From Desulfobacterales bacterium (GTDB lineage Bacteria > Desulfobacterota > Desulfobacteria > Desulfobacterales > JAHEIW01): a DNA stretch of 52,789 nt. The stretch spans positions 1 to 52,789 of the forward strand of contig JBFFCW010000001.1 in assembly GCA_041559695.1 (NCBI GenBank), in the 5' to 3' direction. Positions 4,732-50,573 of the stretch are shown piece after piece. Position 1 is the stretch's first letter, and every line of letters starts with the position of its first letter. The notes under the pieces are model-generated. The model did not search any database. It saw only the letters and a program-made list of their open reading frames with translations, and was not told the origin of the DNA. Made by a program: the position numbers and the translations under genes.

Positions 4732-5859
4732 TCATGGGTGTGAAGCAAGACGGAAGGTTTGGGATGAGCATCGTGAACCAAGGGGTTTTCTGCGAGCCGC
4801 TGTTTCCTTGCGCTCCGCCATCCAGGATTCATATACGTTGCCACTGGCGACCCTCAGCCCCATAGCGGTGATCACTTTTTTAACTTCAGCCACGGTGCGC
4901 AGCCCCTGCTCGATGTCCAAAGCGCTTTGAGAAACTCCGGCCAGCCGGTTGTTGGGGGGAATAATGGATGTGATCACATTGGCTCCGGCATCCAGGCGCA
5001 TTTTGAGCCCTTTAATTCCGTCAACATCCAGCGAAGCGGGAATTAACCGGTCCGGCATGGCCAGACGCATCACCGCGATACACAAACATTCGATCATTCT
5101 CGAAGGGCTGGACATCCCGCAAAGCGGTGTCTCGGACTGGGGCACAAAACTCATCGTCCGGGCCTGGTCCACATCATTTTGCCGCATGGCCATAATGGAA
5201 TCCGCACGATCGTTGAGGGTTTCTCCGACGCCCAGCAAGATCCCGTCTTCCACCAGCATTCCGGCACGACGCGCGGCGTTTCTTTTATCGTTGCGGTATT
5301 TAAAGCGCTGGCCGGTTCTCAATTTTTTAAATAAAACGGAATTGTGAGTTTCCTGGTACAAAGCATACCAGTCCGTCTTAATTGCGGCGAACTGATGCAG
5401 GATTTCCTCGGGGACCACACCCGGTGAAATCATAACCGGTAAGCCTGTGTTTTTCTTTACCTGCGCAATCATTTCGATAAGAATATGGAAGTTGCCGCTA
5501 TCGTGTATCATTGGGTCTTCACCCAGGGTCAGGTCAACCAGATGCACGCCTGAATTTGCCAACTCGCAAGCGATTTCGATGACTTCTTCCAAACTCTTGC
5601 GGTAACGGGGGCTTTGTTTATTCGTTTTTCTATAAAAACAAAAAGTGCAATGATTTCGGCAATAAGTCGATAAATATATGAAACCATACAGGAATAATTG
5701 GTTCGCGAAATGCAGCCGGCACACCTTGCGAGCGGCTGACATAACCAGCTGAATCGATGCAGAATCTTTTAGAGACAATAATTGAAGGGTATCATCCGGT
5801 GATGGAGAAAATCCATGGATTGCCCTATCTAAAATATCGTTTAAACGACGCTGAGGCAT
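4732..5859 (-). CDS. pylB: Radical-SAM methylornithine synthase PylB (pyrrolysine biosynthesis)
   Basis: Colinear with Methanosarcina PylB: FIYLSTYCRNHCTFCFYR (CxxxCxxC), VDLTLGEDP, ALYQETHN, VEDGILLGVG and RLIPASLDVDGIKGLKMRLDAGANVITSIIPP. ATG at 5859. About 25 extra C-terminal residues. Confidence 0.8.
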   Translation of the reverse strand: MPQRRLNDILDRAIHGFSPSPDDTLQLLSLKDSASIQLVMSAARKVCRLHFANQLFLYGFIYLSTYCRNHCTFCFYRKTNKQSPRYRKSLEEVIEIACELANSGVHLVDLTLGEDPMIHDSGNFHILIEMIAQVKKNTGLPVMISPGVVPEEILHQFAAIKTDWYALYQETHNSVLFKKLRTGQRFKYRNDKRNAARRAGMLVEDGILLGVGETLNDRADSIMAMRQNDVDQARTMSFVPQSETPLCGMSSPSRMIECLCIAVMRLAMPDRLIPASLDVDGIKGLKMRLDAGANVITSIIPPNNRLAGVSQSALDIEQGLRTVAEVKKVITAMGLRVASGNVYESWMAERKETAARRKPLGSRCSSQTFRLASHP

Positions 5860-8466: not shown

Positions 8467-9867
8467 TTAAAACTTCATTTTTTCCTTCAAACGATTGACG
8501 CCGGCGATTTCGATATCGAGCAGCTCGGCAATTCTTACTTTTGCCTCAATTCCCTTGGCGCAACCCGGGACAGACGTAATGATCCCTAAGTCCAGCTCCT
8601 CGCGGACCTCTCTCATTACGTGTACATCCGACAGGTCGGCCGGGGAAACTTTTAGCTTTTTGGCAACGTAGGCTTTTGCGTCGTTGATCCGCATCTTGCG
8701 GGCCATCTGCATGCGGGCCACCAGATCTCCGGCGGTCCTGATTCCACCCATTCCTGCTGCCACTCCGTGAGCTATCGACATCCCCATGGGATCTCCCACG
8801 CCAATCTACAAACCGTCTACTTTGGCAATTTCCACCATGGCCTTCGACGCCCGGCTGACTGAATCGATAGGCGGTGTCTCGAATATCGGCGAGCCGCCAA
8901 CACCCATTCCCATGTTCACATGGATGGGGATGTTGGACGCTTCAACGCACGCTTTTACAAAGGTCACCGCTCTGGCCACATTCCACGGCATGTTTTTGCT
9001 GGGCTTGGTGTTTACCACCGGGCCAAAAATATCCGCCCCGGCTTGCTCCACGAGCTTGACTTGATCATGGCAGTACAAACCAGCGAGTTGCTGACCTTCA
9101 TATTCCAGACCGCCGTGCATACCGAGTACAAATTCTCCGGCCATTCCCACTTCAATGCACATATCGGTGTTTTTTTTCAGATGCTCGACGGCGTGCAGGG
9201 TGGCCTTAAAATCCGTATCGCCCGCAGCCCCGGTGGTATCGAAGTTTATCCCGTCACAACCGACCTCTGCGAGTCTTTCGCATACATAAACCATGTCCCG
9301 AATGGCGTGCTCCACCGCCCCTTCCTGGGCCTCATAGGACTCCTGGATCTTGCCCGCGGGCAGCAAATCCGAAGGATTTCCAAAAGGCCCGTCGGGACTG
9401 TAGTACAGACCCAGGTTTGGCATGGCGCCATAAAAGAGCGGCAGAATCGTTACCAGCAGCGCATTTTCCATTTCCTGCTGTTCCATAGCAATAACCGGCT
9501 TTACCGGCTTAAAGCTATAATCGATATGTCCCAGCTCCATGGTATCGGCACAAAATGCCCTTTCATGGACCTGGATGCCCTGCACCCGGCTCAGCGGTAT
9601 GCCGACACCGCTGTTGCCCTGGTCTCCCATCACCCGCAGGGTTCCGATATCGTGGGTGACGACCACTTCGTTCCCCGGCTCCACACTTACAAACCGAGTG
9701 GGGTTGGTAAAGATGTCCAGCAGGATGTCCAGATCATCTTTTGACAGCGGCGCTATCTTGCCCTTGTCGGCGGCGTCTGCAGTGCCCGCCTCCAAGTCGC
9801 TCATTATTTCCTCGGAAGTCATTTCAATGAGCGCTCCGTCCCCCCGTCTAGTAAGGTATTTCGCCAT
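8467..9867 (-). CDS. mtbB: Dimethylamine:corrinoid methyltransferase MtbB with in-frame UAG (Pyl) at 8806-8808, codon 354
   Basis: ORFs 8806-9885 and 8467-8799 are in the same frame and are separated only by TAG. The junction [16 protein letters not shown] equals the Methanosarcina MtbB VDG(I/L)-Pyl-IGVGDPLGM. The alignment holds over the full length ([24 protein letters not shown]). A strong RBS (GGAGGTGA) precedes ATG 9867. Confidence 0.9.
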
Positions 9868-9881
9868 ATTCTCACCTCCTT

Positions 9882-10526
9882 TCAACTGAATATTTCTTTG
9901 AGTTTCATCACCGTATCACCGGCGTTTTCCGCCCAAAAAGTCGCACCGATTTTGGCAGCCCAGTGTTCAGTGGTCGCCGCACCGCCGACCATAGTGGTCA
10001 GCTTGTCTCGAATTCCCGCGTCTTTCAGGGCTTGCTCAAGGGCTTTTTGCCCCACCTGGGTCGTTGTCATCAGCGCCGAGGAACCGACAACATCTGCGTC
10101 GGCCTCTTTTGCTTTTTCCACAAACGTCGCAATCGGTACATCTCGGCCCAGATCGATGACCTCAAAGCCGTAAACCCTAAGCATGGTGGCGACAATGCCT
10201 TTGCCGATGTCATGCACGTCCCCTTCGACCGTCCCGATCACAACCTTGGCCAGTTTCTTGCCGACCTGGTCTGCGGGCATGGCCTGTTCCAGTACCTTTA
10301 CCGCTGCCGTCATCGCCTCGGACGCGATGATCAGATGCGGTAAAAAGACCTCTCCGCGATCAAAGAGGTCCCCCAGTTTCCGGATGCCTTCAGAAAGACC
10401 TTTTTCGATCATCTCAACCGGATCGAGACCCTCATCTAAATATTCCTGGGCCAATTTCACTGCAGCTTGCTCATTTGCATCAATGATGTGCTGGGCAGCC
10501 TTTTCCATGAATTCCGCTTTGTCCAT
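9882..10526 (-). CDS. mtbC: B12-binding corrinoid protein (MtbC-like)
   Basis: DxHxxG motif (GDVHDIGK) plus SALMTTT and GGA motifs. It lies immediately upstream of mtbB. Confidence 0.85.
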
Positions 10527-12394: not shown

Positions 12395-12464
12395 TCTATT
12401 GCTTATCTCCTGTCTCGATTGGAATTGCCATGCCGAAATTGGCAGAATTCGTTAATTTTCAACT

Positions 12465-12515
12465 TTGATGAATTCGTAAAAAGTTTGCTTTTCTGACTTT
12501 TTACGAGATTATCAA
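12465..12515. repeat. Palindromic element between the mtbA-like gene and ramA, related to 49119-49150
   Basis: TTGATGAATTCGTAAAAAGT-ttgcttttctg-ACTTTTTACGAGATTATCAA. The inner 10 bp are perfect. The 18-mer TTGATGAATTCGTAAAAA is identical to the reverse complement of 49133-49150. Confidence 0.65.
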
Positions 12516-16100: not shown

Positions 16101-16404
16101 CGGATCACCTCCTTTCTATTTTTCTCATAGAATGTTAGTGTGTTACCGGTTGACTTTATTTCTCCCGCTTCGGTTCAGATATAACGGTTCGACGTCCCCC
16201 CTGGTGGGAATTTTGCAGGAATTCCTCTGATTTTCATCATCGGTTCCGGATTGCGTCCCTTGGGGATCGGATTATTCAATCCGGCAAATCCGCGTGAATA
16301 TATTATCACCTCCCTCCGAATCGTACGGTTTTGAAGATGAGGGGAATGAAACGTCGCCCATAAACAAACTGGATCAGAAAATGGCATAAAAAATATCTGA
16401 AATT

Positions 16405-16454
16405 ATTGCAATAGTCCATTGGATGATTTTTGTTGGCATGCGGGTCTATTTTGG
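16405..16454 (-). promoter_or_regulatory. Conserved ~50-bp operator/promoter box, copy A, upstream of mttC-mttB
   Basis: The minus strand reads CCAAAATAGACC-N12-AAAATCATCCAATGGACTATTGCAAT. The same 12+12+26 layout occurs in copies B-D and E. A TTGCAA hexamer is followed 17 bp later by TATGCC. Confidence 0.6.
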
Positions 16455-16605
16455 TTTCCATTGAGCCTGATAAGGATTTGTATATATATATGATATTTTA
16501 AAATTTTTGTAAACGCTCAGCCACCAGCACGCAACGGCATCTACTGTTTCCTGTGGAATGATTGTCGATTTAAGGTGTTCTGTCAATCTTAATTGGCAAA
16601 CAGTT

Positions 16606-16655
16606 AAAAAATAGTCCCGCATCCTTTTGAAAATCATCCAATGGACGATTGCAAT
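16606..16655 (+). promoter_or_regulatory. Conserved operator/promoter box, copy B, upstream of mtmC-mtmB
   Basis: AAAAAATAGTCC-N12-AAAATCATCCAATGGACGATTGCAAT. TTGCAA, then 17 bp, then TAATTA (16672-16677). It is divergent from copy A. Confidence 0.6.
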
Positions 16656-16975
16656 TCTATTACACCTTGACTAATTAAACTTCTTATTATTAACTGGCCG
16701 AACTAGCGCCTTTTGCAGACAAGAGGCGGCAACGGCCAATCGGCAGCCTGCCGTTTCAGTTACTGAATTCGGGAAAGTTTAGATTCTACCTCGATTGAGC
16801 GTTTTTTGAAAAGAAGTGTACCGGATTTGTGTCCATCAGGATTTGCGAAAACCGCAGGCATACCTGTGGCCAGATCGATGATTTTCGTCCCGCCCAGGCG
16901 AGAATGCGCAAGAGACCGGTACGTCTCAAGCAAAAAATCGCTCAATTCAGGTCCTCATGAAAGGAGGTGAAATTA

Positions 16976-27421: not shown

Positions 27422-27544
27422 TCGTCCTCGGTCCCATAAACGCTTCCTTAGAAATAATTTCAAAACGCGCCCTTTGAACCAGGCTCTCGGCCTGCGCGGA
27501 TGGGCTCGCGACAATTCTCAAGATATGCCCGTGCCGAAAAGTCC

Positions 27545-27594
27545 AAAAAATAGTCCCCCACGCTTAGAAAAATCGTCCAATGGACTATTGCATT
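27545..27594 (+). promoter_or_regulatory. Conserved operator/promoter box, copy C, upstream of ABC importer 2
   Basis: AAAAAATAGTCC-N12-AAAATCGTCCAATGGACTATTGCATT. TTGCAT, then 17 bp, then TATTTA (27611-27616). Confidence 0.6.
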
Positions 27595-27781
27595 TTATTA
27601 TCATGTAAAATATTTAAATCTCGGCTGTATTGCGCCCATAAAACGGGGGGTATAAAGCTGGGATTCAAAATATCACGACTGAATAATATAAAAGTGGCAC
27701 TAAGGAGGTGATAAAGCGCCGGCAAGGAAAAGCGTAATTAAACTTTAAATGGACTCAATTGTTGGCACGGAGGTGATTACA

Positions 27782-37064: not shown

Positions 37065-37742
37065 ATGGCTTCAGAAGAAAGAACAAAAGAAATCATAAAC
37101 GAGATTCGTCAGGCACTGATAAACTATGATGAGGATGGCGTGCAAGAGTGGTGCAAAACTGCCCTGGACGAAGGTGTTGACCCATTCCGCGCAACCATGG
37201 AAGGGATTGCCGACGGGATGATAGAGGTGGGAGATCTTTACAATAAAAAGGAATACTTTGTCCCTGAACTGCTGCTTTGCTCGGATGCATTATATGCCGG
37301 ACTGGACATTCTAAGGCCGGCCATCAAGGAATCGGGCCGGGAATCCGAGGCCAAAGGCTCCATCGTCCTGGGTGTGGTCGAGGGCGATGTTCATGACATC
37401 GGTAAGAACCTGATCAAGATGATGTTCGATGTCGCCGGATGGACCGTTTATGATCTGGGAAAGGATGTGCCGCTAGAAAAATTTCTGGAAGAGCAGATGA
37501 AGACGGATTGCGACATCGTCGGTCTCTCCGCACTGATGACCACCAGCATGGTGGCGATGCCCGAAATTGTAAAGAAGCTGAAAGAGAAAAATCCCAACGT
37601 CCGCATCATGCTCGGTGGCGCTCCCATCACACCGGAACTTGTAGACACGTACGGCGCTGACGGCTATGCAGAAAGCGCCGGGACCGCCGTTGACGAAGCG
37701 ATCAAACTGATCAAGATGCTGAAGGAAGAAGAAATGAAATAG
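37065..37742 (+). CDS. B12-binding corrinoid protein
   Basis: [15 protein letters not shown] and GGAP motifs. AAGGAGG RBS. It ends TAG-TCC-TGA. Confidence 0.85.
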   Translation: MASEERTKEIINEIRQALINYDEDGVQEWCKTALDEGVDPFRATMEGIADGMIEVGDLYNKKEYFVPELLLCSDALYAGLDILRPAIKESGRESEAKGSIVLGVVEGDVHDIGKNLIKMMFDVAGWTVYDLGKDVPLEKFLEEQMKTDCDIVGLSALMTTSMVAMPEIVKKLKEKNPNVRIMLGGAPITPELVDTYGADGYAESAGTAVDEAIKLIKMLKEEEMK

Positions 37743-37846: not shown

Positions 37847-40800
37847 ATGCCAGGAAATGAGGAAGATAAATATTTAGTCATTTTTCAGCCATCCGGGTGC
37901 CGGGGCTACCTTGAGAAAGGAACGAGCCTTAAAGAGGCCTCGGTGGCGCTGGGTGTTGATATAGAGGGCGTATGCGGCGAAAAGGCCATTTGCGGCACGT
38001 GCAAGGTTCGCATCGAAGAAGGTAATTTCGAGAAATACGGCATAACGTCAACCCGGGAAAATCTTTCCCCCATGGGGCCGACGGAAAGAAAGTTCTTCAA
38101 TCTCCAGCAGGAGGAAGAAGGCTACCGTCTGGCCTGCCAGACAAAGATACTGGGAGATGTCGTCCTGTTCGTCCCCGAGGAGAGCCGCATGGGCAAACAG
38201 GTCGTCCGCAAAGCGGCCACCGACAGGCCGATGAATTTAAACCCGGCGGTAAAGAAGTACTATGTGGAGCTTAAAAAGGCCACCCTGGAGGATACCCTCG
38301 GCGACCTGGAGCGGCTTACAAACGCACTTGAAAAAGAGTACAACCTGAGTAATCTCTCGATTGATTATCAGGTGCTCATGGAACTCCAAACCGTCGTACG
38401 TGAAGGTGATTGGAAGATAACCGCAACCGTCTGGCATAATAAAGAGATCATCAAAGTCGAGCCGGGACGTGTCGAAAAGGTTTACGGTCTTGCGGTGGAT
38501 GTGGGTACATCCACAGTTGCCGGTTACCTTTGTGATTTGACGGACGGCAAAGTTCTGACGACCGGCTCCATGATGAATCCGCAGGTGGTATATGGCGAAG
38601 ATGTAATGTCCCGTATCAGTTTCACCATGACCAACCCCAGAGGTCTCGAGATCCTAAACGGTGCCATTATTGACGGCCTCAACGGAGTTGCGGATGAGGT
38701 TGCATCCGCAGTGGGTATTAAACGACAGGATATCGTCGATATGTCCATCGTGGGCAATACCTGTATGCACCATATCTACCTGAATACCGATCCGAAATAT
38801 ATCGGTCGTTCCCCTTTCCCGCCCGCACTTCATCACTCAATCGATATTAAAGCCCGGGACTTTGGACTCAAAATAGAACCGGAGGCTGAAGTCGCCGGCA
38901 AGGGTATCTGGCCGCCCTGCCAGGTCGCATGCCCGGCCGGGGTCAACGGACAGGACTTCCTGTATCTCATCGCCCAGGGCAAGCACCGGGAAGCCCTCGA
39001 ACTGGTTAGGATGGCCATTCCCTTTGCCGGAGCGCTCGGGCGTATTTGCAACCATCCCTGTGAAACCGAATGCGAAAGACAATTTGTGGAAGAACCGCTT
39101 TCCATCCGCTCGCTGCATCGTTTTATTGCCGATTACGAGATCGAGCAGGGCCGGGAGAAAGCGGCACCCATCGAGAAAACAAAAGAGGAAAAGATTGCTG
39201 TCGTCGGTTCCGGGCCGGCCGGGCTTGCCTGCGCTTTTGAGCTGGTCAAAAACGGATATCCGGTGACGGTCTTTGAGGCGGAATCCGAGTGCGGCGGAAT
39301 GATGCGTTATGGCATACCCGAATACCGGCTGCCCAAAGAGATCCTGGATGACGAGATCAACTATATTAAGGAACTGGGTGTGGAGATAAAAACCAACAGC
39401 CCGGTGGACAGCATTGAGAGCCTTTTCAATCAGGGGTATAAGGCGATCTTTCTGGGTACGGGCGCCTGGTCAAGCTTGAAGCTGGAAATTCCTGATGAAG
39501 ATGCGGACGGCGTCATCCACGCCCTTGATTTTCTTAAGAAGGCCAATACCGGTGAAACGGTCGCGCTGGGTGATAAGGTGGCGGTTATTGGCGGCGGAAG
39601 CGTCGCCATCGATTCCGCCAGGCTGGCCCAGCGGCTGGGCGCCGGCGAAGTCAACCTGATTTGTCTGGAATCCACCGACCTGACCTGTGCGGACAGAATG
39701 ACGGCCCAGGACATGGAAATTGGACAGGCCGCGGAAGAAGGCGTTATTGTGCATCCGAATCTCGGCGTCGCCAAGATCCTGACGCAGGACGGCAAGGTCA
39801 CGGCCCTCGAAACTTCAAGTTGCGTCTCCGTGCTCGATTCGGAAGGCAGATTTGATCCTAAATTCAGCGACGAACCGACCCCCACCATACCGGCGGACAC
39901 CGTGATTGTTGCCATCGGTCAGAAACCGGACGGAAAAGACTTTAGCGAGCTGGAAAAATACCCGTCCGGTATTATCAAAGCAGACAAAACCACCCTGGAA
40001 ACAAATATTGCAGGGGTCTTTGCCGGCGGTGATGTGGCCTCCGGGCCGGCTGACGTCATCGGTGCTGTTGCCGGCGGTAAGAACGCCGCTATTTCCATTG
40101 AGCTTTATCTGGCCGGAATGGATGTTAAGGAATCCAGACCTGCGCCTCTTTTACGCATCGAAGAGGTGCCCAAGGATGGCGTGGTAAAAGAGGCGAGACA
40201 GGCGGAGCCCCTGCTCGAACTGCAAAAACGCAAAGGGCTTGCCGAGGTCGAGCTGGGCTATGAGGAGCAGGCGGCCAAACAGGAATCACAGCGTTGTCTG
40301 CACTGTGGCGTTTTTGCCCAGAAGGAATCCTCCGATATTGCCCAGGCCCGCGGCGTCGGGCTTAAAATCTCCCCGGGGGCCTATGTCCATGTGCTTCCGA
40401 TCGAGGCTGGCTTTGTCGGAGCCGATAATGTCGGGGTGCTCATTGCCGAAGAGCCTTACAAGCAGGATAAAATAAAGCTTATTATCGATATCGGAACCAA
40501 CGGTGAGATCATCTTCGGTAATAAAAAGATGCTGATCTCGGCATCCTGCGCCACCGGTCCTGCCTTTGAGGGCGCCGAGCTGAAATTCGGCATGCGCGCG
40601 GCGCCGGGGGCGATTGAAAAGGTGGAAATTAATCCGGAAACCAAAGATGTCCGCTTCAAAATTATTGATGAAACCCGCTGGAATACCGAGATGAAGTCGG
40701 AGGAAGTGGGCGCCAAGGGGCTCTGTGGATCCGGCATCATTGATGCCATCCCCCAGCTTTTTCTGGCAGGCGTTATCGACAAAACGGGAAAGTTTTTAAA

Positions 40801-41299
40801 GGACGATTCCAATCCCCGCCTGCGTATAGCGGATGACCAGTACGAGTATGTTATTGCCTGGGCCAAGGAGACGTCAATCGGTCAGGATGTTGTCGTCTGT
40901 CAGGACGATATCCGGGCGATACAGCTGGGTAAGGGTGCCATGTATGCGGGCAGCAAGATCCTGCTGGAAACCCTCGGAGTCGAGAAGGTAGACGAGGTCG
41001 TTTTGGCCGGTGCCTTTGGAAGTTACATAGACAAGGAATCGGCAGCGGTACTGGGGATGTTTCCCGACTGTGAACCGGAGAATGTCTATTCCGTGGGGAA
41101 TGCTGCGGGCGATGGTGCGCGTATGGCGCTGCTCGACGTTGATAAACGCAAGGAGGCCGATGAATTCGCCAGGAAGGTGGAGTACATAGAACTGACGGTG
41201 AATCCTGAGTTTGAAAAGACGTTTGCCAAATCTATGTGGATACCGCATATGAAGGATAAGTTTCCGAACCTCAGTCACATTTTACCGCAAAAAAAGTAA
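37847..41299 (+). CDS. RACo-type corrinoid reductive activase with an inserted GltD-like NAD(P)H/FAD/FeS oxidoreductase module (1150 aa)
   Basis: The N-terminus has a 2Fe-2S motif (CGEKAICGTCKV) and ASKHA motif GLAVDVGTSTVAGY. The insert at 38894-40345 carries CQVACPAG..CNHPCETECER, KIAVVGSGPAGLACAFEL, KVAVIGGGSVAIDSAR and FAGGDV. The ASKHA fold then resumes (AGFVGADN, IDIGTNGE, CATGPAFEGA). Confidence 0.85.
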   Translation: MPGNEEDKYLVIFQPSGCRGYLEKGTSLKEASVALGVDIEGVCGEKAICGTCKVRIEEGNFEKYGITSTRENLSPMGPTERKFFNLQQEEEGYRLACQTKILGDVVLFVPEESRMGKQVVRKAATDRPMNLNPAVKKYYVELKKATLEDTLGDLERLTNALEKEYNLSNLSIDYQVLMELQTVVREGDWKITATVWHNKEIIKVEPGRVEKVYGLAVDVGTSTVAGYLCDLTDGKVLTTGSMMNPQVVYGEDVMSRISFTMTNPRGLEILNGAIIDGLNGVADEVASAVGIKRQDIVDMSIVGNTCMHHIYLNTDPKYIGRSPFPPALHHSIDIKARDFGLKIEPEAEVAGKGIWPPCQVACPAGVNGQDFLYLIAQGKHREALELVRMAIPFAGALGRICNHPCETECERQFVEEPLSIRSLHRFIADYEIEQGREKAAPIEKTKEEKIAVVGSGPAGLACAFELVKNGYPVTVFEAESECGGMMRYGIPEYRLPKEILDDEINYIKELGVEIKTNSPVDSIESLFNQGYKAIFLGTGAWSSLKLEIPDEDADGVIHALDFLKKANTGETVALGDKVAVIGGGSVAIDSARLAQRLGAGEVNLICLESTDLTCADRMTAQDMEIGQAAEEGVIVHPNLGVAKILTQDGKVTALETSSCVSVLDSEGRFDPKFSDEPTPTIPADTVIVAIGQKPDGKDFSELEKYPSGIIKADKTTLETNIAGVFAGGDVASGPADVIGAVAGGKNAAISIELYLAGMDVKESRPAPLLRIEEVPKDGVVKEARQAEPLLELQKRKGLAEVELGYEEQAAKQESQRCLHCGVFAQKESSDIAQARGVGLKISPGAYVHVLPIEAGFVGADNVGVLIAEEPYKQDKIKLIIDIGTNGEIIFGNKKMLISASCATGPAFEGAELKFGMRAAPGAIEKVEINPETKDVRFKIIDETRWNTEMKSEEVGAKGLCGSGIIDAIPQLFLAGVIDKTGKFLKDDSNPRLRIADDQYEYVIAWAKETSIGQDVVVCQDDIRAIQLGKGAMYAGSKILLETLGVEKVDEVVLAGAFGSYIDKESAAVLGMFPDCEPENVYSVGNAAGDGARMALLDVDKRKEADEFARKVEYIELTVNPEFEKTFAKSMWIPHMKDKFPNLSHILPQKK

Positions 41300-43815: not shown

Positions 43816-44328
43816 TTACTTTTCGATTCCAATCCTGGCTCCAACGCCTTTCTGGTAATAATGCTTGATTAATCGCATCTCAGTGACCAGGTCTGCATGT
43901 TCAATAATCTGGGGGGAAGCACCGCGGCCTGTTATCACAAGTTCTAAATCAGGAGGTTTGTTTACGATTAAGTTGATAAGTTCCTGTACGGAGAAAAGGT
44001 TATGCTTCACCGCAACATTGGCCTCTTCCAAAATAATAACGTTATACGCATCAGAAAAGATGATCTTCTTTACCTTATCAAGCCCTTTCTGAGCAGCTTC
44101 GAAATCTTCTGGCGAAGGATTATTTTCGAAAAGGCCGAGCCCGAATTGTTCTACCGTAATCAGGTCGGAAAACCGCTTCAGTGATTTAATCTCACTGAAG
44201 TCTCCCAATTTAATAAACTGGGCAATGAATACCTTTAACCCGGCACCTGCAGCTCGTATGGCCAGACCCAATGCGGCTGTGGTTTTGCCTTTTCCATTAC
44301 CGGTATAAACCTGCGTATATCCTTTCAT
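43816..44328 (-). CDS. cobO: Cob(I)yrinic acid a,c-diamide / cob(I)alamin adenosyltransferase (CobO/BtuR type)
   Basis: VYTGNGKGKTTAALGLAIRAAG P-loop. The length (170 aa) and the HYY..G motif are typical. Confidence 0.8.
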   Translation of the reverse strand: MKGYTQVYTGNGKGKTTAALGLAIRAAGAGLKVFIAQFIKLGDFSEIKSLKRFSDLITVEQFGLGLFENNPSPEDFEAAQKGLDKVKKIIFSDAYNVIILEEANVAVKHNLFSVQELINLIVNKPPDLELVITGRGASPQIIEHADLVTEMRLIKHYYQKGVGARIGIEK

Positions 44329-44629
44329 AGCGCTTTAAATGTCCTTTACTTTCAACGATTATCATTATCTCGATCGGGTGAGGCCCACTCGACTGGACCA
44401 TACCCCAACTCACCCCCCAATACAATAGACAAACCGGAAAGAGAGTCAATTGCTTCCGGAAAATTTGGGTTATCAAATTATAATCGAATTGATTGAAATC
44501 ACGCCCAAAATAGCAGCTCCCAAAAACCTAAGCGGCATGATTTGAATTTAAAAGAGTTGCACCCGGTTGACTTTATCCTTATCATTTTTATGCACAGTAA
44601 CGATAAAGCATTTATCGGTTCCGGATCAA

Positions 44630-45664
44630 ATGAAACTCAGCCCAAAGAAAAGAGCATTCAAAGCGCTATTGGGAAGCAGAACCGATCGCGTGCCCGTCAC
44701 AACATTGACGGGTTGTGGCGGTTCCGTAAATGTTGACATGCAAAAGGCAACCGGCATCTTTTGGCCTGCTGCTCATAAGGACCCAAAATTAATGGCCAAA
44801 CTTGCTATTGCCGGCTATGAAATCGGCGGCATAGAATGTGTGAAGCTCCCATTTCACAACATCGTGGAAGCCGAAGCTTTAGGATGTAAAACAAGATATC
44901 CCAAACAACGGCATCTTTACCCTGTCGTCGTGGAGCATCCCTGCACGAATCCTCAGGACTTAAAGATGCCGAATCGCATCCTTGATTCGGGCAGACTGCC
45001 GGTTGTTCTGGAAGCAATACGAATAGCAAGAGAACTCGTAGGAGACTTTCTTCCGGTCTCGAGCCATGTTATCGGTCCGTTCACGCTTGCTTGCGAACTG
45101 GTCGGGATAGAGCGCTTTTCGATATGGTCTCTCAAAAATATTGAGCATGTAAGATCCGTTCTTGATTTTGCGACCGAATTTATCATTGCGTTCGGTAAAG
45201 CTCAATACCGGGCCGGTTCTGATTTTGTAACCGTTGCAGACGGCTCTCTCGCGCAGAATTTGGTAACACCTGAAGTGCTTCATCGCTTCTTAAAACCCGC
45301 TTTAATTCGAATTGCTGAAAATTTTTATGGTATCCGGCTGCTATACATCGGCGGCAAAGAAGAACCGATGGTTCCGTTTCTGGCGGAGTGCGGTTATGAT
45401 GGAATCAGCGTGGCAGAGACAGTGGATATTGCCAAGATCAAACCTCTTGTCGGGGAAGTCAAAATCCTTGGCAATGTCAGCTCTAAAACCACGTTAACCC
45501 GGGGCTCTCCCAAAGAGGTTAAATCCGAAGTCAAGAAGGCGATTGAAGGTGGGGCGGATCTGATTGAGCCCAGTTGTGGTATTCCCCCCGAAACCCCTAC
45601 CGCCAACATCAGGGCGATGGTTGAAGCGGTGAAAACATATGGGGGCCCGCTAAAGCCGAGCTGA
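44630..45664 (+). CDS. UroD-family (MtaA/MtbA-like) methyltransferase
   Basis: KKRAFKALLGSRTDRVPV..ECVKLPFHNIVEAEALG..LYIGG. ATG 44630 is chosen although its RBS is weak; the ORF track's start is at 44567. Confidence 0.7.
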   Translation: MKLSPKKRAFKALLGSRTDRVPVTTLTGCGGSVNVDMQKATGIFWPAAHKDPKLMAKLAIAGYEIGGIECVKLPFHNIVEAEALGCKTRYPKQRHLYPVVVEHPCTNPQDLKMPNRILDSGRLPVVLEAIRIARELVGDFLPVSSHVIGPFTLACELVGIERFSIWSLKNIEHVRSVLDFATEFIIAFGKAQYRAGSDFVTVADGSLAQNLVTPEVLHRFLKPALIRIAENFYGIRLLYIGGKEEPMVPFLAECGYDGISVAETVDIAKIKPLVGEVKILGNVSSKTTLTRGSPKEVKSEVKKAIEGGADLIEPSCGIPPETPTANIRAMVEAVKTYGGPLKPS

Positions 45665-45708
45665 TGCCGGTCGTTGATTGCGGCCTTGAGCCTAGGGAGA
45701 ATAAAACA

Positions 45709-45945
45709 ATGAAACATATAGATTTTAATAAATATCTAAGCAGTCGAAATAAGAAGTTAAAAAAAAGAAGTCCGGAAAGTACCCGGATCCAGACCGAGAA
45801 AGAACCATCGGCAATCATTATCCCCTTTCACGCCATGTTAAAAAATGAGTTGAAGCTATACCGCGGTAAATCCAAATCCGCTCGTCTGGGTGTGCTTGGG
45901 AAATACGATGAACTCATCGCCATGGCCCGCAAAAGGAAGTCCTAA
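45709..45945 (+). CDS. Small basic hypothetical protein (78 aa)
   Basis: GGGAG RBS 9 nt before ATG 45709. No recognisable family. Confidence 0.3.
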   Translation: MKHIDFNKYLSSRNKKLKKRSPESTRIQTEKEPSAIIIPFHAMLKNELKLYRGKSKSARLGVLGKYDELIAMARKRKS

Positions 45946-46040
45946 AATGCGTTTTCACCGTGAGGGAGAACCGAGGCCCATGGGTGTTTGGATTCGATGC
46001 CAATATGGATTAAAAATAGACCAGACAGGAAGGGACCGTC

Positions 46041-46517
46041 ATGGGAATAATCTGCCATGGGTGGGATGCCAATGATTTCAAATTTATCGAGAATTGTTTG
46101 CCCCAAAAAGCATCTTGCTCAACAGCAGGGTGAGGTTCAAGCATCGTTCGAGGGGTCCTCGAAAAGTTGCTGAACGTTCTAAAAGCGATTGAAGCAAAAA
46201 AGGCAACGGCGGAGTTTGAAGTTTCTGAGAGCGCAACTGAAAAGCTCCAGGCGCTGTTAGCCCGACGGAAGAATGCTTCTTCTATCCGGATCCTATTGGT
46301 AGAAGCTGCATGACCCGGTCAGACGCTGGCAATGGTTCTGGATGAACCAAGAAATGGCGATACGGTAATCGATCACAATGGGATCACCTTTGTCATGGCA
46401 CAAGAATTTTTCGATCGTGTCAAACCGATGGCCGTGGATTTCAATACCGCCCCCAACAGTTCCGCGTTTTCCATTTCCTCGGTTGCCTATAATTTTTCCT
46501 TGCGGGTTCTATTGTAA
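46041..46517 (+). CDS. Candidate HesB/IscA-like selenoprotein with two in-frame UGA codons (46131-46133 and 46311-46313)
   Basis: ATG 46041 follows AGGAAGG. Reading through gives ..SCSTAG-U-GSS..FEVSESATEKLQALL..IRILLVEAA-U-PGQTLAMVLDEPRNGDTVIDHNGITFVM. The second U sits where IscA/HesB proteins have the first conserved Cys (..GCSG..). No ATG or GTG lies in frame between the two UGAs. Confidence 0.45.
46147..46163 (+). other. SECIS-like hairpin after the first UGA
   Basis: TTCGAGG-GGT-CCTCGAA (7-bp perfect stem, G-rich apical loop). It starts 14 nt after the UGA. Confidence 0.35.
46333..46349 (+). other. SECIS-like hairpin after the second UGA
   Basis: TGGTTC-TGGAT-GAACCA (6-bp stem, loop containing GG). 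It starts 20 nt after the UGA. Confidence 0.35.
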
Positions 46518-46624
46518 AGGAGAAAAAGAGCGCCTCAATCGGTGGAACGCTTTTGCAGTTCTCTCCGGCGCCAAGATACAAGGGCTTGGGTAATCGGTAA
46601 CAACTTTTTTCCGTTTGCCCTCAA

Positions 46625-48007
46625 TCAAGATATTTTTTGTTTAAACTTGTTGACACAGTTAATTTCCAAATTTAGCAATTTTGCGATGCGAAACTTGGCA
46701 TCAATTCCTTTTGCCACGCCAGGGCATTCATTCAGGGCCCCAAGATCCATATCTTCCCTGACTTCTCTCATGGCAACCGGATCTGCGATATCTTCCACCG
46801 AAACCCCGAGCCTGCCGGCCACATACTTCTTGGCGTCCTCAATCCGCATCGCCCGGTTCAGCTGCAAACGCGCCACCAGATCTCCGGCAGTGCGTAATCC
46901 GCCCATCCCCGAAACGATTGCATGTGCCGCATGCATCCCGTAAGGGTCGCCAACGCCCACCTACAATCCGTCCAATCTACAAATCTCAACATGCGCTTTG
47001 GAAGCTCTCGCCAGGGCGTCCACCGGCGGGGAAATCGCCATTGGAACGCCACCCACACCCATTCCCAGATTGGCATGTACCGGGATATCGGATGCCTCCG
47101 AACAGGCCTTTGTATAGGTGAGGGCCCGGGCCAGGTTGAAAGGCAGTGATTTGCTGGGGACGACATTGATGGCCGGTCCGAAGATCGTAGCCCCTGCTTT
47201 TTGTGCCAGTTTTATTTGGTCGTGGGGATAGAGCCCCGCCAATCGGACCCCATCGTATTCGACCTCACCATGCAACCCCATTATGAATTCCGAAGCCATT
47301 CCCATTTCAATGCCCATCTCGGGATATTTCTTTTTAAGGATCTCCACTGCTTGGAGCGCCGCGAGAAACTCCGCATCTCCCGCCGCAGCGGTGGTGTCAA
47401 AATTAATGCCATCTGCTCCGGTTTCATACATTTCACTGCCCACATAGACCATGTCTTTTACCGCATAATCTATCGCCTCTTCAAAAGAGGCCCTGCCTTC
47501 GGCGATCTTCCCCTGAGCGAACAGATCCAGTGGATTGGGGCAGGGACCGACGGGTTGGCTGTACAATCCCAAATTCGGCATCGCACCATAAAGAAGGGCC
47601 GGAATGGTAATTAATAACGCCTGTTCCATGATGGGTTTCTCGAATACCACGATGGGTTTTACCGGTTTATAGCTGTAGTCAATGTGAGCAAGCTCCAGGG
47701 TATCGGCGCCGAGTGCCCTTTCAAAAATCTGTAATGATTGGATTTTACTCAGCGAGACGTGTGCGCGCTTGATTTTAGTGGTACAGCTGTCGTAGGTAAG
47801 GCAAACCTCCTTTCCTTTTTCAACACCGACCACCCGATCCGTACATTTGTGGATTTCATACAAGTACTGAAGTTCATCTTTGGTAAGAACCGGGATCTTT
47901 GCTCTGTCTGCAGCATCGGTCGTCCCTTTTTCAAGATCTTCCCGGAGTTCGGCTCCGGTCATTTCGCACCTGATACCGTCACCCATTCTGGTTTGGATTT
48001 TTTCCAT
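46625..48007 (-). CDS. Divergent MtbB-family methyltransferase with in-frame UAG (Pyl) at 46961-46963, codon 349
   Basis: ORFs 46961-48028 and 46625-46960 abut in the same frame. LDGL-TAG-VGVGDPYGM retains the MtbB Pyl context. Other regions are conserved ([36 protein letters not shown]), but the [11 protein letters not shown] segment of canonical MtbB is missing. GGAGGAAG RBS before ATG 48007. Confidence 0.85.
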
Positions 48008-48024
48008 TGTCTTCCTCCATTTAC

Positions 48025-48792
48025 TCAATCGGTTTTAGAATTCAGATATGCCTTGACCGAATCCCAGGTCTTTAATAAGATTCTATGGGTGCCTTCACAG
48101 ACGTCCGTACGGAAACCAAACATCTCATTGAAAGCCTCGATATTTCGTCTCATTTCTGCAAGACACATAATCGGTGTTTGAATCAGCAGAGAGCGTTCAT
48201 AATGCTTGAATAGCCGTTTCGCCATTTCAGCGCTTAGGTTGCCGAACTCCTGCTCGAACATGCGCTTCCAATGGTATGTCCAGCCGGGTATCATAAAAAA
48301 GGTGCCCGCCACCCGGCACTGTTCTTCGTAATAGCGTTTGCGCCCACCGATAATCAGACCGATACAATCGTCAACCGGATGATCCTCATCCATGGGGATA
48401 AAAACAGGCACCCCGGCATCGGACAGCAGTCCCCCGGGATTTTCAAATGCGTTCCCGCACAAACCGTATCCAAGCATCAGAGCATCCACGCGAGGCCCAA
48501 ATGCCATTGCTGCCTCAATTAATCCCTGTTGAAGGGTGTGTTTGCGAATATGCAAGGCCAGCTCTAAAACACCGACCAAGACTTCCAGAGCAATTTGGGG
48601 ATCCGGGGTGAAATCATTCAGATGGGCGATCCGATTTAACTTGTCTTTATTGGTGGACTCAAAGGCAGCAATCAAGCGCGCGGATCGCTCATTCTCAAGA
48701 ACCGTAATGCGGCCGACTTCCTTATCCACCGCCAACAATTCGGCAAATTCCAGTTCCAGAATCTCACAGGTCAGCACGCCCAAAATTGCCAT
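48025..48792 (-). CDS. DUF1638-like protein (family assignment tentative)
   Basis: 255-aa ORF with an LGYGLCGN motif. It lies immediately upstream of the mtbB paralogue, with its stop 18 nt before that gene's start. Confidence 0.5.
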   Translation of the reverse strand: MAILGVLTCEILELEFAELLAVDKEVGRITVLENERSARLIAAFESTNKDKLNRIAHLNDFTPDPQIALEVLVGVLELALHIRKHTLQQGLIEAAMAFGPRVDALMLGYGLCGNAFENPGGLLSDAGVPVFIPMDEDHPVDDCIGLIIGGRKRYYEEQCRVAGTFFMIPGWTYHWKRMFEQEFGNLSAEMAKRLFKHYERSLLIQTPIMCLAEMRRNIEAFNEMFGFRTDVCEGTHRILLKTWDSVKAYLNSKTD

Positions 48793-48880
48793 TGATCTTC
48801 GTCTCCCTAAATCTAATTAACTTAATTTATAAAATCTCTGAAATTAGTTCAAGTCTGTCATGACCATCATTAAAACCTGG

Positions 48881-48901
48881 ATGCCCGCCTGACGCGGGCA
48901 T
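48881..48901. other. Perfect 8-bp GC-rich hairpin in a divergent intergenic region
   Basis: ATGCCCGC-ctgac-GCGGGCAT. Confidence 0.6.
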
Positions 48902-48964
48902 GACGGCAAAACTCCCAGACCGCTCGGTTAAGGAATATTCCTTTCATGATTTTGTGTCAAGCTT

Positions 48965-49000
48965 GGCAACAGAAGGTTGTTGTCTGTTACCGGCTTTTTT
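48965..49000 (+). terminator. Intrinsic-terminator-like hairpin plus T6, with no upstream plus-strand gene
   Basis: GGCAACAGA-aggttgttg-TCTGTTACC (9-bp stem, 1 mismatch), then GGCTTTTTT. Confidence 0.35.
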
Positions 49001-49009
49001 GCTACGAGA

Positions 49010-49118
49010 GTGTTTAGTATTTGGTGTTTAGTATTTGGTGTTTAGTGTTTAGAATTGTATCAAATTGATAAAAAGTCATATACGCTATACTAAACACAAA
49101 ATACGAAACACCAAACAC
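49010..49118. repeat. Tandem 14-bp GTGTTTAGTATTTG units with an imperfect inverted copy
   Basis: GTGTTTAG occurs at 49010, 49024, 49038 and 49045. The reverse complement of the right arm (49090-49118) is GTGTTTGGTGTTTCGTATTTTGTGTTTAG, matching the left arm at 26 of 29 positions. Confidence 0.7.
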
Positions 49119-49150
49119 TTGATGAATTCAGTTTTTTACGAATTCATCAA
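49119..49150. repeat. Perfect 11-bp palindrome just upstream of the DUF169 gene RBS; shares an 18-mer with 12465-12482
   Basis: TTGATGAATTC-agttttttac-GAATTCATCAA. Confidence 0.7.
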
Positions 49151-49174
49151 AATTTAAATGCTGAGGAAGACGAT

Positions 49175-49897
49175 ATGAACGATTTTCAAACCATTTCTCG
49201 AAACCTGGTTAAAAGCCTGTCCCTTCAATATGAGCCGGTTGGCGTCCTGCTTTACCAGGAAACAGACCCGCTGCCGGTCGAACTGCCCTTCACCCAAAGA
49301 GAATACAAAAGCTATTGCCATGCGCTGGTCGCCGCCGGTGAGGGTGAGGTCCTGCTTTTGAAAAAAGAGCAAATGGGCTGCAAACTGGGAACATCCGTTT
49401 TGGGTTTTGAAAAAGACATGGCGGCCTTCCTGGATGACGGAGTCTTAGAAAAGTATGGTGTGGGCCTCTTTGAAACTGAAGCGGCTTCGGCTGAAACGAT
49501 TCTCAAATCGTCGTACCTGGAAAAAGGCAAAACCCGGGCCGCGCTGATCGCCCCGCTGTCATATTTTAAACAAACGCCCCAGGTTATGATATTTACCGCC
49601 AACAGTGAGCAGGTCATGTGGTTGCTTTACGCCCTGAATTATGAAAAAGGCGGGCGCATGCAGCTTCCGCAATCCGGCGGCGCCTTGGGCGGCTGTGCCG
49701 ATATTACGGCCCTGCCCCTTCTGGAGGGGATTTCCAACATTACCTTTTTGGGTCTGGGGTGCCGGCTGAAATCAGCGGTGGATCCATGTGATCTGATGCT
49801 GGGCGCACCCGGGGATCGGCTGGAGATGATTCACAACCATATCCTGGATATGGTAAAGCCGATCGCCATGCTTAAACAGCAAAGCGCCGCTTCTTGA
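49175..49897 (+). CDS. DUF169-like protein (assignment tentative)
   Basis: 240-aa ORF with a GAGGAAG RBS. The LGLGCRLKS motif and overall length resemble DUF169. Confidence 0.5.
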   Translation: MNDFQTISRNLVKSLSLQYEPVGVLLYQETDPLPVELPFTQREYKSYCHALVAAGEGEVLLLKKEQMGCKLGTSVLGFEKDMAAFLDDGVLEKYGVGLFETEAASAETILKSSYLEKGKTRAALIAPLSYFKQTPQVMIFTANSEQVMWLLYALNYEKGGRMQLPQSGGALGGCADITALPLLEGISNITFLGLGCRLKSAVDPCDLMLGAPGDRLEMIHNHILDMVKPIAMLKQQSAAS

Positions 49898-49919
49898 AAA
49901 CAGGCCAGGACAATCAGCC

Positions 49920-50573
49920 GTGGACAACGTTTGGATCATCGGTGGCGGCAAATTTGGCCTCAGGGCCGCCAATACGCTCAGCAAAAAACATCCCTTAACG
50001 AACCTGACCGTTGTGGAGAAGGAAAAAGCCGTTTGCAGGCAGTTGGGCCGGCTGGGGTTTGAGGCGGTTTGCACGGACGGTATCCAATACCTTGAACGCA
50101 ACCTGGTGAGCGCGCCATACCCCGACTGGATTGTGCCCGCCATCCCTTTGCATGCGGCATATGAGTGGATCAGAACCAAACTATCAAAGACCCACAACGT
50201 ACAAAAAATCGCCGTACCGCAGGACCTCGTCACTGAGCTTCCCTATCCGACAAACGCAGAAACCGGCCGACTTTATATCAGCATCGCCGATTTTAAATGC
50301 CCCGAAAACTGCCCCGAGCCGGATGAAATCTGCACCCATACGGGTAAACCGCGGTTAATGGTCCTGCATGAATTTCTGAAATCAATTCAGCGAAAAGACC
50401 TAAAAACCGTTGTGATCCGAAGCCATCAACTGGCCCCCGGGGTGGGCGGATACACACCCGGGGCCCTGTTTGCTGCCTTAAATGAAATTGAGGCCGCCCA
50501 AGGGCCGATAGTACTCAGTACCGCCTGCAGCTGTCATGGCGTCATTGACGCATTTAAATTATCAGCAAGATAA
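49920..50573 (+). CDS. Rossmann-fold (NAD/FAD-binding-like) protein with a Cys motif; function unknown
   Basis: VWIIGGGKFGLRAA dinucleotide-binding motif and CPENCPEPDEIC. GTG start. Confidence 0.5.
   Translation: MDNVWIIGGGKFGLRAANTLSKKHPLTNLTVVEKEKAVCRQLGRLGFEAVCTDGIQYLERNLVSAPYPDWIVPAIPLHAAYEWIRTKLSKTHNVQKIAVPQDLVTELPYPTNAETGRLYISIADFKCPENCPEPDEICTHTGKPRLMVLHEFLKSIQRKDLKTVVIRSHQLAPGVGGYTPGALFAALNEIEAAQGPIVLSTACSCHGVIDAFKLSAR

Follow-up and report, generated by a model that had tools for sequence, protein, structure and literature searches.

A second pyrrolysine-type mtbB gene in a Desulfobacterales bacterium is intact and probably encodes a short-form dimethylamine methyltransferase

A 52,789-nucleotide stretch of a Desulfobacterales contig (hereafter the window) carries two genes of the MtbB family, and the second of them, mtbB2 (46625-48007, reverse strand), is retained under strong purifying selection both before and after an in-frame UAG codon. 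We consider it probable (roughly 0.7) that mtbB2 encodes a functional pyrrolysine (Pyl)-containing dimethylamine:corrinoid methyltransferase from the family's short-form branch, which is bacterial. Most likely, this enzyme acts on dimethylamine together with a corrinoid protein that is encoded elsewhere, and its gene is co-transcribed with that of a corrinoid-maintenance factor. The presence of an intact second Pyl mtbB copy is thus a real finding, albeit an ordinary one.

Gene identity and family assignment

The mtbB2 gene comprises 460 codons including the UAG and ends in a TGA stop codon (46627-46625, reverse strand). Its product matches the Pfam family Dimeth_Pyl (PF09505) from residue 4 to 458 (E = 3.6e-193, 642.8 bits, cutoff 25) and also passes the cutoff of the NCBIfam equivalog for dimethylamine:corrinoid methyltransferase (TIGR02368, 508.1 bits, cutoff 369.1). 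The start codon was placed at the ATG at 48007 and not at the alternative TTG at 48028, a choice supported by more than 100 homologues in which exactly 348 residues precede the TAG.

As a comparison we used mtbB1 (8467-9867, reverse strand; TIGR02368, 663 bits), a long-form (archaeal-type) Pyl dimethylamine methyltransferase gene of the same window that is 64% identical to the MtbB of Methanohalophilus. The original prediction, made from the sequence alone, had judged the two copies by eye to be about half identical, with a segment missing from MtbB2 and a stretch replaced, and the alignment bears this out: the proteins share 56% identity with a single 6-residue gap, and the loop TYDSCTTKIKRAHVSLSK (residues 71-88; 47744-47797, reverse strand) takes the place of the long-form GDQGNSG segment, a net deletion of six residues. 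Within the alignment of the clade defined by this loop, K78 and R81 are invariant. A long-form loop (GDQxNSG) conserved in about 90% of sequences is replaced in the short form by a differently conserved K-I-K/R-R loop.

An MtbB-family phylogeny, which had been proposed along with the original prediction, places MtbB2 in a short-form clade separate from the archaeal-type enzymes, with a bootstrap of 0.95 in a tree that is neighbour-joining only and contains no M. barkeri sequences. Its placement apart from the archaeal-type copy is also reflected in the identities of only 47-48% to the N-terminal parts of the archaeal MtbB proteins of Methanohalophilus and Methanohalarchaeum. The 6-residue deletion is derived, given that the long loop is present in the outgroups (P0128 and P0129), and the whole short-form clade shares it. 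What did not hold was the description of MtbB2 as an orphan, divergent paralogue. It is one of many members of a bacterial clade that as a rule shows both the deletion and the exchanged loop. More than 120 protein clusters share at least 68% identity with MtbB2 (nearly all exactly 348 aa to the TAG), and 254 genome hits are spread over several phyla, the members including Desulfobacterales, Spirochaetota, Dehalococcoidia, and other phyla. The view of MtbB2 as the odd one out was therefore rejected.

In an AF2 model of the 348-residue N-terminal part, the loop at residues 71-88 forms short helical turns (pLDDT ~80-86). A fold search of the PDB retrieved generic TIM barrels only (among them BHMT, HisF, and the Hcy domain of MetH; TM-scores 0.3-0.44), and no protein related to MtbB turned up there in a search by sequence.

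Substrate and corrinoid partner

No corrinoid-protein (B12-binding) gene was found within ~9 kb of mtbB2, the nearest being located at 37065-37742 and 9882-10526. The original prediction had correctly pointed out the missing neighbour and had treated it as something special; this second part fails, as only 24 of 63 short-form copies in the clade have a corrinoid gene within 1.5 kb. Among relatives at 66-77% identity, mtbC lies at most 1.5 kb away in 16 of 31. The most plausible partner in trans would be the MtbC of the window itself, the corrinoid protein of the mtbB1 operon (9882-10526, reverse strand; Pfam B12-binding and B12-binding_2). A further component may be contributed by the MtaA/CmuA-family methylcobamide methyltransferase gene with a URO-D fold at 44567-45664 (forward strand; Pfam URO-D, PRK06252 310 bits, TIGR01463 267 bits), which is convergent with mtbB2 and adjoins it also in two related loci (L090 and L091); its product is a candidate for the second methyltransferase of the module. 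In the mechanism that we propose, MtbB2 would activate dimethylamine via pyrrolysine and methylate a corrinoid protein in its Co(I) state whose gene lies elsewhere, with the window's MtbC as the likeliest acceptor, after which the methyl group would be passed on by a second methyltransferase of the MtaA/CmuA or the MtrH type.

The assignment of dimethylamine as the substrate draws entirely on homology and gene context, as the literature that we searched contains no biochemically characterised short-form MtbB. The product of Pyl-containing MttB is dimethylamine. A Pyl-mttB gene lies immediately upstream of mtbB in 6 of the 15 relatives that are at least 78% identical, and such frequent co-operonic arrangements among close relatives argue for dimethylamine as the substrate of MtbB2 as well. 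The same arrangement weighs against the idea, put forward in the original prediction, that MtbB2 is a neofunctionalised paralogue in which the short-form loop and a W290F replacement retune the pocket for another methylated amine. This idea has several observations in its favour: the short form is a clade apart from the archaeal-type enzymes, its loop has been exchanged for one conserved in a different manner, Phe290 (47138-47140, reverse strand) is the sole subclade-specific replacement at a strongly conserved position (Trp elsewhere), and the carrier genomes usually hold more mtbB copies (the window, L013, and L018), a pattern typical of subfunctionalisation. However, apart from the loop, the N-terminal part differs at strongly conserved columns only in positions 125 (short versus long form) and 290 (subclade), the curated equivalog cutoff is passed, many short-form genes stand in classic mtbB-mtbC pairs, and it is precisely the closest subclade that is co-operonic with Pyl-mttB. 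We therefore regard a changed substrate as unlikely. A broader version, in which the short-form branch or the Desulfobacterales subclade (with F290 and no cognate corrinoid gene) comprises Pyl methyltransferases for another methylated amine, with DUF1638 as a specific corrinoid-handling partner in the present lineage, seems to us a long shot; if true, it would represent a new specificity for a Pyl enzyme.

The DUF1638 gene and its pairing with mtbB2

The gene upstream of mtbB2 (48025-48792, reverse strand) is the first of a two-gene unit and encodes a DUF1638 protein of 255 aa, as the original prediction had suspected (PF07796, E = 2.5e-32, 112.4 bits, gathering score 27). Its stop codon (TGA, 48027-48025) is separated from the mtbB2 ATG by a 17-nt spacer (48008-48024, reverse strand) that contains a Shine-Dalgarno sequence (GGAGGA, 48013-48018) and is identical in loci L090 and L094. 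With this spacing the two genes are most likely co-transcribed. The translational close coupling claimed before stands as far as the short spacer with its ribosome-binding site is concerned, but the genes do not overlap. The unit also lacks the conserved promoter box, as had been stated: the core CAATAGTCCATTGG, common to the regions upstream of mtmC, mttC, and the ABC transporter, has no match in 48793-49174 with up to three mismatches allowed. A promoter and terminator scan of 45600-49300 returned sites no more numerous than in shuffled sequence, hence no promoter was assigned.

Orthologous DUF1638 genes are found in contexts with BtuFCD, a reductase, CobO, TSCPD, and CobW, and in related genomes the usual neighbour is a CobO-type ATP:corrinoid adenosyltransferase gene such as the one located in the window at 43816-44328 (reverse strand). 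Published genetics connect DUF1638 and a RamA-like activase with methionine synthesis that depends on B12 (PMC5764234, with fitness data from Phaeobacter inhibens; PMC12478193). Based on these gene contexts and the published genetics, DUF1638 is predicted to be a corrinoid-maintenance accessory protein, which in our scheme would serve as a general factor keeping corrinoid cofactors or proteins active.

Alternatively, DUF1638 could be a dedicated partner of MtbB2, for instance a corrinoid carrier or chaperone that replaces MtbC in a new two-component system. Loci L090, L091, and L094 share the 17-nt coupling with its Shine-Dalgarno sequence, no corrinoid gene adjoins mtbB2, and DUF1638 fusions occur 3-5 kb from its closest orthologues, all of which would suit such a role. 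Nevertheless, no B12-binding domain was detected in DUF1638, and the genomic survey speaks against such a pairing: the gene adjoins mtbB only in relatives (near-identical genomes) with a DUF1638 at least 85% identical, while orthologues at 69-79% identity are located in B12-uptake/CobO/CobW clusters without mtbB. The co-occurrence of DUF1638 with the clade as a whole, which the original prediction had suggested surveying, did not materialise either. A DUF1638 domain of any kind is present within 8 kb of mtbB at just 3 of 79 other loci (L013, L014, and L035), the same three being recovered by single-sequence tblastn, which we judged too insensitive, and subsequently by a profile search; all three carry it as a fusion with an ASKHA ATPase, downstream of mtbB or mtbB-mtbC. 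A dedicated partnership is thus very improbable. The position of the orthologues in clusters for cobalamin uptake, adenosylation, and CobW indicates that the juxtaposition of DUF1638 and mtbB2 is a recent rearrangement at roughly the genus level and not a conserved functional pair.

The UAG codon and purifying selection

The original prediction had proposed an MtbB-family gene with an in-frame UAG that is functional because Pyl is retained, and both parts are supported. The TAG is located at 46961-46963 (reverse strand; residue 349, context LDGL-TAG-VGVGDPYGM) inside the full-length Pfam match, and a TAG occupies the equivalent position in 100 of 100 MtbB copies from related loci. MtbB2 keeps all 112 of the 112 near-invariant columns (at least 97% conserved across 90 other MtbB sequences). 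The dN/dS is 0.05-0.12 for the whole gene and 0.10-0.14 for the 111 codons 3' of the TAG, a segment with 79-88% amino-acid identity to its orthologues. Of the further disabling lesions that had been named as evidence against the earlier reading, none were found.

The capacity to decode the codon is indicated by pylB (methylornithine synthase; 4732-5859, reverse strand; NCBIfam TIGR03910, 441 bits, cutoff 348), whose presence in the window implies that the organism makes pyrrolysine. Besides mtbB2, the window holds three UAG-containing methylamine methyltransferase genes (mtbB1, mttB, and mtmB); ARAGORN detected no tRNA, and hence no tRNA-Pyl, anywhere in it. From the family alignment and this gene content we infer that the UAG is read through as pyrrolysine.

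A match to Rfam PYLIS_2 (RF02509; 67.3 bits, gathering score 36), the pyrrolysine insertion sequence of mtbB, covers the 100 nt from the UAG onwards (46864-46963, reverse strand). Its 3' hairpin (46868-46895, reverse strand) shows apparent covariation at synonymous sites among 26 clade sequences: 94% of the cells are paired in register, compared with 32-44% when the partner is slid along, in a set of related sequences and for a helix that overlaps a quasi-palindromic codon run. Cells with double changes number 20 versus 6.7 ± 2.4 in shuffles (0 of 500 shuffles), again among related sequences. The mtbB2 element resembles PYLIS_2 in scoring above the gathering threshold and, as far as these related sequences suggest, in a conserved 3' helix with apparent covariation, and differs in several non-standard pairs of the 5' helix; its role in UAG decoding is putative.

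Given that TAG serves as an ordinary stop in 6 of the 43 ORFs of the window, one could propose a decaying gene whose product is a 348-residue fragment followed by a mere remnant, but the selection on and identity of the post-TAG segment, the conservation of both the TAG and the tail in all 100 copies, the lack of other lesions, and the presence of pylB leave this reading next to no credit, and the view of mtbB2 as a pseudogene was rejected on dN/dS and conservation.

Comparison with known systems

MtbB2 shares with the MtbB characterised in Methanosarcina (PF09505, TIGR02368) full-length homology, the position of Pyl, the near-invariant residues, and a predicted TIM-barrel core, and its gene likewise forms part of a methylamine island, alongside mtbC, mttBC, mtmBC, pylB, and the gene of a RamA-like activase. 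It differs in its affiliation to the bacterial short-form clade (47-48% identity to two archaeal MtbB sequences over their N-terminal parts), in the 6-residue deletion in place of the GDQGNSG loop, in the absence of an adjacent mtbC and, as bacterial physiology suggests, in the methyl acceptor, which is likely tetrahydrofolate and not coenzyme M (PMC8318568).

Excerpts of the reports on the Olavius delta-1 symbiont (PMC1976440) and on Deltaproteobacteria-bbl (PMC8318568) describe several Pyl mtbB/mttB genes per genome, some of them clustered with mttB. The window comes from the same order as these marine Desulfobacterales and has the same multi-paralogue pattern, and its DUF1638 shares 69% identity with a protein of Olavius Delta 1. 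Neither the split into short and long forms nor the juxtaposition with DUF1638 is described in those excerpts. The DUF1638 of Phaeobacter inhibens (PMC5764234) is comparable in its PF07796 domain, its connection to corrinoid-dependent methyl transfer, and its association with B12-handling genes, whereas in the window the gene directly precedes a Pyl methyltransferase gene; in both organisms the function is a predicted one.

Implications

The basic picture of several Pyl methyltransferase paralogues in marine Desulfobacterales, known since 2007, is unchanged, and the practical value of the finding is modest. For annotation, it means that bacterial Pyl-type mtbB comes in two forms, an archaeal-like long one and a widespread short one with a replaced loop. 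The use of dimethylamine inferred for sulfate reducers, spirochaetes, and Dehalococcoidia leans on the short-form branch, for which this activity is a predicted one. Lastly, the B12-uptake/CobO/CobW contexts, the fusions to ASKHA ATPases, and the position in front of mtbB2 provide independent support for DUF1638 as a corrinoid-maintenance factor.

Locus and gene structure

The window covers a methylamine island from a Desulfobacterales MAG, and the same locus is found in NCBI assembly GCA_041571295.1 and in three others. It carries pylB, the long-form mtbB1 with its mtbC, a RamA-like activase and an MtaA-type gene, the Pyl-type pairs mttB-mttC and mtmC-mtmB, two Liv-type ABC transporters, an MtrH/corrinoid/RACo module, and CobW and CobO genes. 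A 1150-residue fusion at 37847-41299 (+), adjoining MtrH-like and corrinoid genes, is built of the domains of a RACo-type corrinoid activase (Fer2, linker, middle, and ASKHA C-terminal), into which a pyridine-nucleotide-disulphide oxidoreductase module is inserted.

The second dimethylamine methyltransferase gene, mtbB2, consists of two same-frame ORFs on the minus strand, 48007-46964 (348 codons) and 46960-46625 (111 codons plus a TGA stop), split by the TAG at 46961-46963 alone. The joined product of 460 residues (junction LDGL-TAG-VGVGDPYGM) is covered over its full length by Pfam Dimeth_Pyl (E 3.6e-193) and scores 508 bits against the NCBI equivalog model for [dimethylamine--corrinoid protein] Co-methyltransferase (cutoff 369), in agreement with the MtbB-family gene with an in-frame UAG that had been proposed here. 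Directly upstream lies the DUF1638 gene (48792-48025, minus strand; 255 residues; PF07796, E 2.5e-32), whose TGA is followed by a 17-nt spacer, GTAAATGGAGGAAGACA, and the mtbB2 ATG; the two genes are thus tightly coupled, as had been noted, and do not overlap. A TTG at 48028, which would create an overlap, was rejected in favour of this ATG because more than 100 homologues have exactly 348 residues before the TAG. MtbB2 and MtbB1 are 56% identical with a single 6-residue gap, where a stretch of 24 letters in MtbB1 gives way to TYDSCTTKIKRAHVSLSK in MtbB2; the observation that the gene is about half identical to the canonical copy and has a missing and replaced segment was therefore correct, like all other parts of the original description of the locus.

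Phylogenetic placement

A search of 5.8 billion proteins with the N-terminal part of MtbB2 returned over 120 clusters sharing at least 68% identity with it, nearly all exactly 348 residues long, which means that the homologues end at the same TAG. Scanning one genome per species, with patterns biased toward the short form, yielded 254 relatives, the best 80 of which were chiefly from Desulfobacterales, with others from Spirochaetota, Dehalococcoidia/Chloroflexota, Acidobacteriota, and one Gemmatimonadaceae MAG. About 15 extra mtbB copies detected in those loci by tblastn were short-form as well, and in 100/100 copies examined the TAG stood at the equivalent position, with the reading frame staying open for about 110 further codons.

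When 129 N-terminal parts were placed in a neighbour-joining tree, the deletion-bearing sequences formed one clade (89 taxa, bootstrap 0.95), within which MtbB2 fell into a Desulfobacterales subclade with the related loci L011-L014 (bootstrap 0.98), enlarged by L015-L018, L020, and L079 at a bootstrap of 0.90. MtbB1 clustered with long-form sequences, archaeal MtbB among them, and was 64% identical to the Methanohalophilus and Methanohalarchaeum proteins, versus 47–48% for MtbB2. The deletion is derived, as the long loop is present in two outgroup-like proteins, P0128 and P0129. The latter is a 463-residue full-length homologue without a stop codon, 39% identical to MtbB2, with Trp at the pyrrolysine position (VDMLWATTGDPY); it represents a non-Pyl branch within the MtbB family, a parallel to the non-Pyl MttB superfamily.

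Integrity and UAG decoding

MtbB2 retains all 112 of the 112 columns conserved at ≥ 97% among 90 other MtbB sequences, and dN/dS against orthologues was 0.05–0.12 for the whole gene and 0.10–0.14 for the part after the TAG. By every available sequence test mtbB2 thus appears functional. Within the strongly conserved N-terminal columns, position 125 (Pro versus Gln) is all that separates short from long forms besides the loop, and position 290 (Phe for Trp) all that sets the MtbB2 subclade apart from every other sequence. AlphaFold2 confidently models the N-terminal part as a TIM barrel (pLDDT 91.6), with the loop folded as short helical turns (pLDDT about 80–86); PDB searches found no solved MtbB structure.

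In both mtbB genes, Rfam PYLIS_2 covers 100 nt starting at the UAG (mtbB2 67 bits, mtbB1 81 bits). Its 3' helix corresponds to a hairpin 66–96 nt past the UAG (46868-46895) that is 94% paired in 26 short-form sequences, against 32–44% when the partners are slid, with 20 double-change cells at paired synonymous sites versus 6.7 ± 2.4 in shuffles. This covariation is suggestive only, since the 26 sequences are related and the underlying R-T-A-G-D-L-V-A-R codons are inherently quasi-palindromic.

Regulatory elements and neighbouring sequence

A conserved upstream box, AAAAAATAGTCCC ... TCCAATGGACKATTGCA, occurs at 16603-16665 and 27543-27602 (+), with a half site at 16400-16425 on the mttC side. 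In the form AAAAAATAGTCCC-N-GAAAAATCRTCCAATGGACKATTGCA it is common to the mtmC promoter region and the second Liv-type ABC transporter, and it is probably a methylamine regulon operator. Its core had no match upstream of DUF1638-mtbB2 with up to 3 mismatches allowed, as had been noted. A perfect 11-bp inverted repeat, TTGATGAATTC-N-GAATTCATCAA, lies at 49118-49151 just upstream of the DUF169 start, and a related 19-mer, TTTGATGAATTCGTAAAAA, at 12464-12482 in the mtbB1 operon, where it separates the RamA-like gene from the MtaA-like one; the two are possibly a shared operator. The DUF1638/DUF169 intergenic region also contains a short tandem repeat of GTGTTTAGTATTTG-like units (49010-49055).

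Convergent with mtbB2 is a candidate selenoprotein gene, 46167-46517 (+), composed of two same-frame ORFs split by a TGA at 46311-46313 (...IRILLVEAA-TGA-PGQTLAMVLDEP...). With Cys at the TGA, Pfam Fe-S_biosyn (HesB/IscA) matches across the junction (E 1.7e-5, 25.4 bits, below the 26.3 cutoff), and a hairpin starting 13 nt past the UGA was no better than shuffles. HesB-like proteins are listed as a known selenoprotein family in the account of the Olavius delta-1 symbiont (PMC1976440).

Context of DUF1638

When all ORFs of 79 other mtbB genome loci were searched with a profile, DUF1638 turned up within 8 kb in just three (L013, L014, and L035), so that the suggested pairing does not extend to the clade. 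In these three it makes up the N-terminal domain of a fusion of about 945 residues with a hydantoinase/oxoprolinase-type ASKHA ATPase (L013:12192-15026, -; L014:7882-10722, -; L035:11332-14187, +), each lying at a distance of a few kb from mtbB; the one in L035 is downstream of mtbB-mtbC. Such Rosetta-stone fusions hint that DUF1638 may act with an ATP-dependent activase.

The DUF1638 protein of the window is itself highly conserved: over 120 clusters share 66% identity or more with it, including an Olavius Delta 1 symbiont protein. Orthologues 69–79% identical reside in clusters of BtuF/BtuC/BtuD, FAD-NAD reductase, CobO, DUF1638, TSCPD ... CobW, always divergent from a DUF169 and TrkA_N/AF_1314_C pair; synteny is conserved in loci L092, L093, L095, and L096, where an AAA ATPase is also among the flanking genes. 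No mtbB was found in these clusters, which look like an uncharacterised cobalamin-handling system. An mtbB2 gene behind DUF1638, at the same 17-nt distance, occurs only in relatives at least 85% identical. The window, too, has the DUF169/TrkA_N pair (49175-50573), and a recent placement of mtbB2 behind DUF1638 in this lineage is the simplest reading. In Phaeobacter inhibens, fitness data show that B12-dependent methionine synthesis needs both a RamA-like gene and one encoding DUF1638, to which the authors assigned no specific function (PMC5764234), and in a 2025 study the Ruegeria homologue is taken as predicted to aid cobalamin recharging (PMC12478193); the contexts and fusions described here fit that role.

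Corrinoid protein and substrate

No corrinoid gene adjoins mtbB2, as originally stated, the nearest being at 37065-37742 and 9882-10526. Among MtbB copies flanked by 1.5 kb or more of sequence, a corrinoid gene was present within 1.5 kb in 2/15 copies ≥ 78% identical to MtbB2, 16/31 at 66–77%, and 6/17 below 66%, and its absence here is nothing special. In 6 of the 15 closest copies an mttB with its own in-frame TAG lies directly upstream on the same strand. Two-gene mttB(Pyl)-mtbB(Pyl) operons were seen in L004-L006, L015-L018, and L020 (marine Desulfobacterales and Tara Oceans contigs), and no corrinoid-protein gene was found near them; both enzymes, like MtbB2, must need corrinoid proteins encoded elsewhere. 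Such an operon is biochemically sensible only if the second enzyme uses dimethylamine, the product of the first, which is the best contextual argument for assigning MtbB2 to this substrate. A different amine, as had been suggested, is unproven and somewhat disfavoured.

Relation to known systems

Of the original interpretation, a functional gene in a clade distinct from that of MtbB1 stands, whereas "orphan", "divergent", and "paired with DUF1638" fail at the clade level. The 2007 description of the Olavius delta-1 symbiont reports multiple Pyl-containing mtbB and mttB in one Desulfobacterales genome, including six MtbB (PMC1976440), and such multiplicity is said to be usual among marine Deltaproteobacteria that use selenocysteine as well (PMC8318568). 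mtbB2 joins this known multi-copy pattern of Desulfobacterales, to which the split into short and long forms and the DUF1638 context add useful details rather than a new system.
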